Shown piece after piece: positions 5,201 to 44,661 of a stretch of 64,000 nt of DNA (within the stretch, counting starts at the first letter, position 1; every line of letters begins with the position of its first letter). The notes under the pieces were generated by a model. That model was not told where the DNA came from and made no database searches. It saw nothing but the letters and a program-made list of their open reading frames with translations. The translations under genes and the position numbers were made by a program. Origin of the DNA: Verrucomicrobiales bacterium (GTDB lineage: Bacteria; Verrucomicrobiota; Verrucomicrobiia; Verrucomicrobiales; DEV007); assembly GCA_040905585.1 (NCBI GenBank), contig JBBDRG010000011.1:95249-159248 (forward strand), in the 5' to 3' direction.

Positions 5201-5418
5201 ACATGATCAAGAACGGAGAGATCGCCCTGGTCATCAACACGCCGAGCGGACGCGTTCCCCGGCGCGACGAGGTCCTGATCCGCAGCGGCGCCTTGGCCAA
5301 CGGTGTCCCGGCGATTACGACGATGCGGGGCGCGCGGGCAAGCGTGCGCTCGATCGAATCGCTCCAGAACGCCGAGTTGAGCGTCAAGCCGATCCAGGAA
5401 TACCACGCCGCCGGGTGA
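2212..5418 (+). CDS. carB: Carbamoyl-phosphate synthase large subunit
   Basis: [30 protein letters not shown] start, two ATP-grasp halves ([34 protein letters not shown]) and a C-terminal MGS-like domain. Confidence 0.98.
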
Positions 5419-5479
5419 TCGTTTTGCAAAAGAGCTGAATTTTTCTTGGCATCCCGCGAGACGGGGGCTAGACTTTAAC

Positions 5480-5493
5480 TGTTCAAAGGAATA
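5480..5493. promoter_or_regulatory. Putative LexA (SOS) box, Verrucomicrobia type
   Basis: TGTTC-AAAG-GAATA is a 9/10 match to TGTTC-N4-GAACA. It lies inside a longer inverted repeat (tttaactgttc/gaatagttaaa, 5474-5499) and overlaps the RBS 6 nt before ATG 5500. Confidence 0.6.
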
Positions 5494-5499
5494 GTTAAA

Positions 5500-5928
5500 A
5501 TGTTTTACGATCAAAGTCAGCCAGAGCGTTCCCAGTGGGAAGGGTTTCCCGAATTCAAGGAGTTGGCGGAGACCGAAGCCGCCTGCGAGGATGCCGGGGA
5601 CGTGGCGCTGAATTTTCCCGACGAACGGCAAATCGCGGGATCGGAACAGCCAAACGCCAACCGAGGCAGGCTCGGAAGCCGGGAATACGACCGCGAACTG
5701 ATACGGAGCGTCTGGGAATTCGCCGAAGTCGTTTCGGGCAACGACAAGGAGCTTTGGAGAAAAGACGAATTCGGCGACTGGATCAACCGATGCGATTTCG
5801 GCAAACGGGATTCCGAGTTCGGCTGGGAAATTTTCGACCCCGGGGTCGGGCGCCATGCCCAGGGAGTCTACGCGATGCGTCCGATGCAGTGGAGAAGCTT
5901 CGTTCGACAGTTCGAGGCCCTGGCCTGA
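5500..5928 (+). CDS. Hypothetical protein with a degenerate HNH-endonuclease-like domain
   Basis: VW..A..V.G.D...WRKDEFGDWINRCDFGKRDSEFGWEI matches the N-part of small HNH proteins, but the D-H-x-x-P and N-L...N-N catalytic residues are replaced (IFDP, AMRPMQWRSF). Confidence 0.7.
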   Translation: MFYDQSQPERSQWEGFPEFKELAETEAACEDAGDVALNFPDERQIAGSEQPNANRGRLGSREYDRELIRSVWEFAEVVSGNDKELWRKDEFGDWINRCDFGKRDSEFGWEIFDPGVGRHAQGVYAMRPMQWRSFVRQFEALA

Positions 5929-6014: not shown

Positions 6015-6321
6015 GTAACTATTCACGTCCTCCGCACGATTCTCGGGGGCGTCGCGTGAGATGAGGGCGGAAAGGTGCCCCGTCAGTTCTTCGCCCCGTC
6101 GACGAGCGAGTCGCCCAACTGGCCGGGAGCGCGGAACATCTCCGCGAGCGTGCCGAGCAGATTGCGCGACTGCTTGCGCGCGGTGGAGACCACGCTGCGA
6201 ATGTCGGCGAAGAGCATGGCGTGCTCCTCGGTGCGGAAGGTTCGGGGCACCCCGTGCCGCTGATCTTCTCGCGGGTCTTCATCATGCGCAGGTCGCGCTC
6301 GGCCTGGTTGTTGTCGAAGGA
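6015..6321 (-). mobile_element. IS66-family remnant: transposase C-terminus plus right terminal inverted repeat
   Basis: Minus strand reads SFDNNQAERDLRMMKTREKISG, then after a frameshift TFRTEEHAMLFADIRSVVSTARKQSRNLLGTL (IS66 TnpC C-terminus). GTAACTATTCAC at 6015-6026 resembles IS66 GTAA-type ends. Confidence 0.75.
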
Positions 6322-6478
6322 CTCGGCCCGAAGGCGATCCCCTCGTCGGGGAAACGGGGAAACGGTGGGAAACGGTGTCAGGGAACCAATTCCAAATCTC
6401 GGCATCGTGATCGTTCCATCATCGTCTTCCGCCCACGAATCGCCATGCCTTTTCCCTCAGGCATCGTAAGGTGCCGCC

Positions 6479-7594
6479 ATGTCCTCGTTCCGAGCCTTCG
6501 ACCTGATCCCCTCCCTCCAATCCACCCTGAAAACGGTGGGTTTCGACACGCCCACCGAGATCCAGGAGCGCGCCCTGCCAGCCCTCCTGAGGGGGGACTC
6601 CGTGGTCGGCGTGGCGGAAACCGGTAGCGGCAAGACCCTCGCCTACGCCCTTCCGGTCCTGCAGAAGCTGAAGCAGCTCGAAGAGGGCGGAGACGCCGTT
6701 TCGGCGGCCGGACAACCGCGGGCCGTCGTGCTGGTGCCCTCCAGCGACTTGGGGGAGCAGGTCACCAAGGCGATGAAGGTCTTCACCCACGACACCCGGG
6801 TGCGGGTGCGTTCGGCTCTCGGTGGCATCGCCATGAAAGTCGCCCGCGGCAATGTGGCCGGTCCTTTCGAGATTCTCCTCGCCACGCCGGGGCGTCTCGA
6901 GCAGCTGATGGAGAAGAAGCTCGTGAACCTCTCCGATCTCCGTTTCCTCGTCTTCGACGAAGCCGACCAGATTCTCGACCAGGGGTTTTTGCCAGCGATC
7001 AAGCGGATCCTGAAGTCCAGCCCGCCCGACCGTCAACTGGCCCTCTTCACCGCGACGGCGTCTGACGGGGTCCAGGCCCTCATCCACGAGATGTTCGGGG
7101 ACGCGGAGATGATCGAGACCCGCGGCCACCATCGTCTCGTCCCCACCCTGACCACGGTGAACCTGACCGTGGTGAACGGGAAACGTTTCCCCCTCCTCGA
7201 AACGCTTCTCGCGGAACCGGTGGAGGGAGGCAGCCTCCTTTTCGTCAACACCCGCGAACAATGCGACCAGCTCGCCGCGGAACTCGCCGAACACGGCTAC
7301 CGCTGCGCCATCTACCGCGGCGACATGGACAAGCAGGAGCGGCGCCGGAATCTCAAGGCCTTCCGGGACGGCACGCTGGACCTCCTCATCTCCACCGATC
7401 TCGCCGCGAGAGGGCTCGACGTGGAAAACATCGGTCGCGTCATCAACTATCATCTGCCCAAGGAGATGAAGAACTACCTCCACCGCGCCGGTCGCACCGC
7501 CCGGGCGGGGCGGGGGGGCACGGTGGTCAATTTCGTGACGGAGCGGGATCTCAACCTGGTGAAGCGCCTCGATTCGATCGCCGGCGGGAGCTGA
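6479..7594 (+). CDS. DEAD-box ATP-dependent RNA helicase
   Basis: Q motif GFDTPTEIQ, AETGSGKT, ATPGRL, DEAD, TAT (motif III), ARGLD and HRAGRTARAG. Confidence 0.95.
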   Translation: MSSFRAFDLIPSLQSTLKTVGFDTPTEIQERALPALLRGDSVVGVAETGSGKTLAYALPVLQKLKQLEEGGDAVSAAGQPRAVVLVPSSDLGEQVTKAMKVFTHDTRVRVRSALGGIAMKVARGNVAGPFEILLATPGRLEQLMEKKLVNLSDLRFLVFDEADQILDQGFLPAIKRILKSSPPDRQLALFTATASDGVQALIHEMFGDAEMIETRGHHRLVPTLTTVNLTVVNGKRFPLLETLLAEPVEGGSLLFVNTREQCDQLAAELAEHGYRCAIYRGDMDKQERRRNLKAFRDGTLDLLISTDLAARGLDVENIGRVINYHLPKEMKNYLHRAGRTARAGRGGTVVNFVTERDLNLVKRLDSIAGGS

Positions 7595-44647: not shown

Positions 44648-44661
44648 TGTTCTAAAGAACA
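44648..44661. promoter_or_regulatory. LexA (SOS) box, Verrucomicrobia type
   Basis: Perfect TGTTC-TAAA-GAACA, 41 nt before the MTase ATG and 19 nt after a perfect TTGACA (44623-44628), so it overlaps the expected -10 region. Confidence 0.75.

Follow-up and report, generated by a model that had tools for sequence, protein, structure and literature searches.

A putative LexA operator in front of a small, acidic, HNH-derived protein in one clade of uncultured Verrucomicrobiales

What is known of SOS regulons in non-model bacteria comes largely from motif searches, and new damage-response functions probably lie among the lineage-specific members. In E. coli, DinI is a small, acidic, DNA-mimicking protein that is induced in the SOS response and regulates the RecA filament. 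Among the described members of the LexA regulon of Verrucomicrobia we know of no HNH-derived gene. The LexA operator of this phylum reportedly reads TGTTC-N4-GAACA, with tandem sites at lexA and recA, as Erill, Campoy, Kilic and Barbe are said to have described in 2016 in Front Mol Biosci 3:33. A study of the Verrucomicrobia LexA regulon by Erill et al. 2016 is cited in PMC8565304. Nuclease folds can also lose catalysis and keep binding: among the His-Me finger domains, Smad MH1 and the nuclease-like domain of ENPP1-3 are examples (PMC5714182).

The gene described here codes for a 142-aa protein and lies in a stretch of 64,000 nucleotides ("the window") of a Verrucomicrobiales bacterium (GCA_040905585.1, contig JBBDRG010000011.1, positions 95,249 to 159,248 of the forward strand; coordinates below count from the first letter of the window). 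Its product is probably a LexA-repressed, non-catalytic HNH derivative, with LexA control as a putative element, and the gene is likely a new, lineage-specific member of the SOS response in one uncultured Verrucomicrobiales clade. With the known Verrucomicrobia regulon the locus shares the half-site sequence, the spacing and the position near a promoter; the same motif is found at this genome's own lexA, splB, imuA-imuB-dnaE2 and an ssb paralog, and tandem sites occur at lexA and recA here too. It differs from that regulon in its imperfect right half (GAATA here), in that the regulated gene is unannotated, and in that the operator occurs only in a single clade of GTDB Akkermansiaceae-like MAGs. 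What is new is thus the probable lineage-specific SOS gene, while the operator type itself is already known as that of Verrucomicrobial LexA. On the protein side, the closest described systems are the HNH endonucleases (PF01844, and an unnamed family of ~100 aa, WRKD...GWEIDHIxP...NLRPLQWxNN). The domain has the same length, a strand-strand-helix C-terminus is predicted for it, and it has the residues W72, R87, D89 and W109, which are invariant across the whole family; unlike these enzymes, it lacks the D-H and Asn positions and the basic C-terminal tail, and it is preceded by an additional acidic region at the N-terminus. With Smad MH1 and ENPP1-3 it shares a scaffold that was kept while the catalytic His was lost, but those are eukaryotic domains within larger proteins, and MH1 is a basic DNA binder, whereas the present protein is free-standing, strongly acidic and bacterial. 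DinI would be an analogue at most: it is likewise small, strongly negative and without an enzymatic motif, and LexA control is presumed for the new gene, but no relation in sequence or fold is expected and the resemblance would lie only in a possible mode of action.

The 142-aa open reading frame follows carB, whose stop codon is at 5418, and the 81-nt gap between them has a single sigma-70-like promoter, TTGGCA-17-TAGACT, with 9/12 matches (1 found in the promoter scan vs. 0.1 expected; Table 1). In the box TGTTCAAAGGAATA the one mismatch is a change of C13 to T, and 13 of the 14 palindrome positions agree. The box begins 5 nt past the -10 hexamer and overlaps the predicted +1, where an operator would lie on the promoter itself. 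The first-pass annotation had described a TGTTC-AAAG-GAATA box within an 11-nt inverted repeat, covering a stretch that resembles a ribosome-binding site and ending 6 nt from the ATG, and all of these elements are located as it described them. The arms of the repeat (5474-5484 and 5489-5499) are 91% complementary around a 4-nt spacer, and the repeat reaches the ATG. In most orthologs AAAGGA is replaced by AAAAGA or AAACGA, so this stretch is not conserved as a Shine-Dalgarno element. The ATG at 5500 is the sole possible start codon because the frame opens at 5479, and the gene appears to be monocistronic, since a hairpin follows the stop codon and the next plus-strand open reading frame begins at 6479. 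Between the gene and this next one, which encodes a DEAD-box helicase, sits a minus-strand open reading frame (6019-6405) with FDNNQAERDLRMMKTREKISG, which looks like a fragment of an IS66-family transposase.

Table 1. Features of the 142-aa gene and its promoter region (window coordinates)
Feature	Position	Strand	Basis or remark
-35 hexamer TTGGCA	5446..5451	+	Promoter scan; conserved in orthologs
-10 hexamer TAGACT	5469..5474	+	Same offset in orthologs: TAGAAT, TAGACT or TACAAT
11-nt inverted repeat TTTAACTGTTC / GAATAGTTAAA	5474..5499	.	Species-specific extension of the box
Extended 18-bp palindrome ACTGTTCAAAGGAATAGT (AC-TGTTC-N4-GAACA-GT type)	5478..5495	.	AC/GT flanks taken from imuA and splB sites
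LexA-type operator (putative) TGTTCAAAGGAATA	5480..5493	.	1 mismatch to TGTTC-N4-GAACA; at predicted transcription start
Shine-Dalgarno-like AAAGGA inside the box	5485..5490	+	Read from sequence
Coding sequence of the small acidic protein (142 aa, pI 4.59)	5500..5928	+	List of open reading frames
N-terminal region: conserved MFYDxS(E/D) start, then variable acidic low-confidence segment	5500..5676	+	Ortholog N-termini, AF2
HNH-derived domain, residues 60-142, without catalytic His and Asn	5677..5925	+	hhalign, Pfam on relatives, AF2
GC-rich hairpin, terminator-like, 3' of the stop codon	5944..5969	.	T-run on minus strand

A motif with one mismatch allowed is easily found by chance. At this stringency a window should contain 1.47 boxes by chance; this one has 2, a number that 38 of 100 shuffled sequences also reach, and in the genome as a whole (5.25 Mb, 62.6% G+C) there are 71 such sites. 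The number of boxes is therefore not significant by itself, and neither is the mutual support that was earlier seen in the presence of two in the window. The significance of the box comes from its position and its conservation, not from the count. Perfect boxes number five in the genome, and three of them are those of lexA, of a splB-type radical-SAM gene and of a methyltransferase (R-M) operon at window position 44648. When scored with a PSSM built from the lexA and ssb sites only, the target box reaches 13.5 bits and rank 23 in the 5.25 Mb, and the sites ranked above it are nearly all intergenic; its score lies inside the span of the splB sites of the genus (6.5-21.8 bits), with which the boxes of its orthologs (5.4-15.9 bits) overlap in range. 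The 18-bp form AC-TGTTC-N4-GAACA-GT has, at up to one mismatch, two sites in the genome including the target, against 0.36 expected, and at up to two mismatches its sites include those of lexA, splB, imuA, the R-M operon, a transposase and an integrase. As this longer motif was picked after looking at the data, these counts serve as supporting evidence only. The bare half-site TGTTCWWW occurs 302 times in the genome, and a scan for it is too unspecific to be used.

Conservation is more informative. The 142-aa protein has 127 homologs at E <= 1e-3, and the gene is found in 89 of 151 genomes of the order. Its own clade, 'MFYDQS', comprises the proteins that start with MFYDxS(E/D) and end in ...RQYEAFA, and contains 38 species with readable upstream DNA, all of them uncultured Verrucomicrobiales that bear the label Akkermansiaceae or UBA. 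One box-carrying locus, L146 of 'Verrucomicrobiales bacterium BCK34', has no MAG label. In each of the 38 species the sequence acTGTTCA stands at the same place, with positions 1-6 and A14 invariant, 17-20 nt before the ATG (29 nt in one case). The promoter layout is constant as well, a TTGGCA-17-TAGAAT-type promoter followed by acTGTTCAAA, and the spacer bases A6-A8 are also conserved. The gene upstream varies by species (carB in about half, other genes elsewhere), hence promoter and box travel with the gene. The right half is looser: G10 is found in 29/38 orthologs and A11 in 26/38, position 13 is C in 18/38 and T in 20/38, and a perfect GAACA never occurs, with 1-3 mismatches in each ortholog. 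A sister group of three orthologs (g8-type) has a perfect TATTC-N4-GAATA palindrome right after a GAACA. In 21 orthologs that carry a basic tail (...VTADGLRNxRRLL; Prosthecobacter and others) there is no box near the gene, which makes this type of control lineage-specific. The expectation that the box would accompany the gene in other species thus holds for the left half and its position within the clade, but neither for a canonical right half nor for the more distant orthologs. The 11-nt repeat as a whole does not stand as a conserved feature, being confined to the source species, with outer arms that vary in the orthologs.

The same style of operator is found at other genes that belong to the damage response. 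There is a single lexA in the genome, and its 205-aa product (PF01726 match, 66 bits) has the GESM and KRF motifs with the Ser and Lys expected of a repressor that cleaves itself. The lexA promoter contains a perfect TGTTCTTAGGAACA 9 nt before the ATG and then a second TGTTCA, and the same arrangement is found at lexA in 20 related genomes. At the splB promoters of the genus, cTGTTCA is kept while the right half reads GTTCA, GATTA, GGACT, AGACA, TAACA, GTCCA or TTGCA; the splB box is perfect in this genome and in two others. The imuA-imuB-dnaE2 cassette (contig C34:1222-6657, within the region C34:1192-6657; an imuA-like gene of 236 aa, an imuB of 508 aa of the IMS family and a dnaE2-sized gene of 1044 aa) lies behind TGTTCAAATAGACA, which is the box most similar to that of the 142-aa gene. 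Its promoter reads gatacTGTTCAAATAGACAgtt in this genome and aatacTGTTC-N4-[A/G/T]AACA in relatives. A scan of recA promoters for the box at up to one mismatch found none; what these promoters share throughout the clade is the conserved tandem TGTTCAnnTTTTTA-C-TGGACnnnTGAACA (TGTTC-N19-GAACA), with canonical half-sites on the outside alone and degenerate ones inside. At locus L070 (contig C68) the tandem stands some 240-300 nt upstream of the part that codes for the RecA domain, and it is also found at loci L057-L074. The RecA of the clade has a conserved N-terminal extension that starts with MVELLSP. A second ssb paralog (131 aa; C78:4140-4542, loci L090-L101), separate from the housekeeping ssb gene, has a perfect box, which lies in the -35 region in relatives, and a further box, TGTTCnnATGAGYA, over its start codon.

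SOS genes of this clade, namely splB, recA and, less markedly, imuA, therefore use one perfect and one loose half-site, and with such a design, searches for full palindromes would miss part of the regulon. The earlier proposal that the box in front of the 142-aa gene is a LexA operator is plausible in this light, given the perfect motif at the genome's own lexA, the position at +1, the left half in 38/38 orthologs and the similar design at splB and imuA. Strong binding of LexA is doubtful, as the canonical GAACA right half is present in no ortholog. The conserved AAA in the spacer is not required by a LexA site; the element may owe some of its conservation to a different factor or to constraints on the 5' leader.

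The protein itself has no direct match in Pfam (even at E <= 10), NCBIfam or PHROGs. Its relatives were reached with a clade profile (A1) built from 61 clade members, which found 967 representatives at E <= 1e-3. Many of these are proteins of ~100 aa with the pattern ...WRKDxCGAWIxRxxYGNRxSxYGWEIDHIxPxxxGGxDxLxNLRPLQWxNN, and 29 of 96 sampled family members match Pfam HNH (PF01844). One D-H-bearing relative (P0147), found by the profile at E 4.9e-17, reaches 31 bits against PF01844, where the cut-off is 21.4, and the D-H-bearing relatives match many HNH families in PHROGs. Against the PDB these relatives give weak matches (E about 0.03) to the HNH domains of Cas8f-HNH fusions and of ZRANB3. 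A direct hhalign comparison of the clade with 33 D-H-bearing relatives gave a probability of 99.7% (E 4.6e-26, 80 columns). The HNH homology proposed earlier is borne out by this comparison and by the Pfam matches of the relatives, and judged from the alignments the protein descends from this HNH (His-Me finger) family. The PDB sequence match of the clade profile itself, a designed armadillo-repeat protein, was judged spurious. The contigs of the remote HNH-intact relatives, looked up for their gene context, are only ~1 kb long.

The WRKD..G..I...(Y/F)G...S..GWEI scaffold that had been reported for the protein is present, except that the gap from I to F is 4 residues and not 3. The replacement of the catalytic His and Asn, also reported, could be traced position by position: D-H of GWEIDH corresponds to F112-D113 in a MAFFT alignment (hhalign places the His opposite a gap), the Asn of NLRP to A125 and the Asn of QWxN to S133. 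No Verrucomicrobiales ortholog keeps the general-base His. On this comparison, the His has been lost across the Verrucomicrobiales branch and the structural Asn has been lost in this clade as well. With these defining catalytic features missing, the protein is better named HNH-derived than an HNH endonuclease. The loop DPGVGRHxQG is nearly invariant across the 61 clade sequences, which are only about 45-65% identical overall, and its near-invariance marks a functional surface. Gain of the operator, gain of the acidic N-terminal region and disappearance of the basic tail coincide on one branch.

An acidic, disordered N-terminus had been described for the protein, and it is indeed acidic and modelled at low confidence: the N-terminal 59 residues (13 acidic, 5 basic) have a pI of 4.15, and AF2 gives pLDDT values below 50 for residues 31-59. 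The net charge of the whole protein is about -11. The full-length AF2 model is poor (pLDDT 58.9), and Foldseek found nothing with it. The model of the C-domain is much better (pLDDT 89.3, pTM 0.79) and contains, besides a helix and a small sheet, a strand-loop-strand-helix end (strands 50-53 and 68-71, then helix 72-82), a predicted C-terminus as would be expected for a beta-beta-alpha module. With this model, Foldseek did not find a solved HNH structure or any other relative in the PDB, so the assignment of the fold rests on homology in sequence. The sole match to the C-domain model in BFVD is A0A2H4UTT3, an uncharacterised 82-aa protein of Bodo saltans virus (TM 0.82, 23% identity), from which it follows that the small WRKD/GWEI family also occurs in a eukaryotic virus.

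Taken as a whole, the locus is best explained as an SOS (LexA)-controlled, non-catalytic HNH-derived protein that acts by binding, an explanation that we consider reasonably likely. Its competitors concern either the DNA element or the protein. For the DNA element, it is possible that acTGTTCAAA is not a LexA site, and is instead the site of another regulator or a constrained start-site or A-rich leader for the initiation of transcription or translation. This would account for an invariance that is limited to the left half, A6-A8 and A14, with a right half that is never GAACA; the half-site is also frequent in the genome, as seen above, and a single site at up to one mismatch is expected by chance. 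Against it speaks that the flanked half-site acTGTTCA with a loose partner is also found on the splB, imuA and recA promoters, where the palindrome is perfect in some species, that the perfect palindrome beside GAACA in the g8-type sister group suits a dimeric factor, and that the preferences for G10, A11 and G15 fit a palindrome. We regard such a non-LexA element as unlikely, though it is the competitor to be taken most seriously. Much less can be said for the inverted repeat as an RNA hairpin that hides the ribosome-binding site and so controls translation. If the repeat is fully transcribed, the hairpin has a folding energy of -10.3 kcal/mol (z = -4.4 in this genome) and would base-pair the leader from AAAGGA as far as the ATG. 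However, transcription is predicted to start ~7 nt past TAGACT, within the left arm, and the leader that remains folds at only -0.8 kcal/mol. In the orthologs the values are -1.3 to -6.3 kcal/mol (z from -2.3 to +0.6), and it is the DNA half-site that is invariant instead. As a conserved function the hairpin was rejected, being significant in this genome only and having unconserved outer arms; translational control of this kind is very improbable.

For the protein, the main competitor is that it is still an enzyme, a damage-induced nuclease in which the loop D113-P-G-x-G-R118-H119-x-Q121-G rebuilds the catalytic centre. The Asp and His of this loop are (near-)invariant in the 61 clade sequences, and replacement of the general base is documented in the His-Me finger superfamily (PMC5714182). 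On the other side, the canonical His and both Asn positions are gone, the tail-bearing Verrucomicrobial orthologs of the family do not have H119, and a His-Me finger domain that has neither His nor Tyr is considered an inactive binder (PMC5714182). A rebuilt enzyme is in our view quite improbable; because the loop could form a new active site, we infer rather than observe that the protein is 'nuclease-dead'. A more specific form of the binding hypothesis is that on its recruitment to the SOS response of this clade the protein was rebuilt, gaining the acidic tail with its MFYDxS(E/D) motif and losing the basic one, into a DNA mimic or adaptor that binds and modulates the RecA filament, SSB, LexA or the ImuA-ImuB-DnaE2 mutasome. 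This is speculative and, in such detail, rather improbable. If true, the adaptor would be comparable in function to DinI or PsiB, on an unrelated fold that derives from a nuclease.

For the preferred reading, a non-catalytic protein under LexA control, the following mechanism is proposed. The gene would be a self-contained transcription unit, with a sigma-70-type promoter and then the LexA operator ACTGTTC-AAAG-GAATAGT over +1. In the undamaged cell LexA would occupy the operator and initiation would be blocked; upon DNA damage, RecA-stimulated self-cleavage of LexA would free the promoter, and the protein would be made. As the right half-site is a full match in no ortholog, this is probably a weak operator, in which case de-repression would reach this gene sooner than most others and its induction would be early or partial. 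The product would then work by binding rather than by cutting. DNA binding, one of the functions suggested in the first-pass annotation, is doubtful at a net charge of this size, which makes a protein partner of the damage response, or DNA mimicry, more probable. An unannotated family with three changes on one branch would be a tangible example of how a nuclease scaffold came to serve as what is probably a non-catalytic factor of the SOS response.

Some further sites of the same type were seen in the genome. The second box in the window is a perfect TGTTCTAAAGAACA at 44648-44661, 41 nt before a gene for a C5 DNA methyltransferase (PF00145, E 8.7e-39). LexA-type boxes, some of them in tandem, are found at the starts of two paralogous tyrosine recombinases and of IS200-like (Y1) and IS91-like (Y2) transposases (C84:3707-3735, C84:84312-84365, C10:3425, C89:5988 and C79:20746), which suggests mobile elements that are induced by damage. 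Further weak operators may be cTGTTCAAATGTTCT, 20 nt upstream of dprA (C37:15434), and TGTTCAAATATTCA, 7 nt before an unidentified open reading frame (C14:14717).
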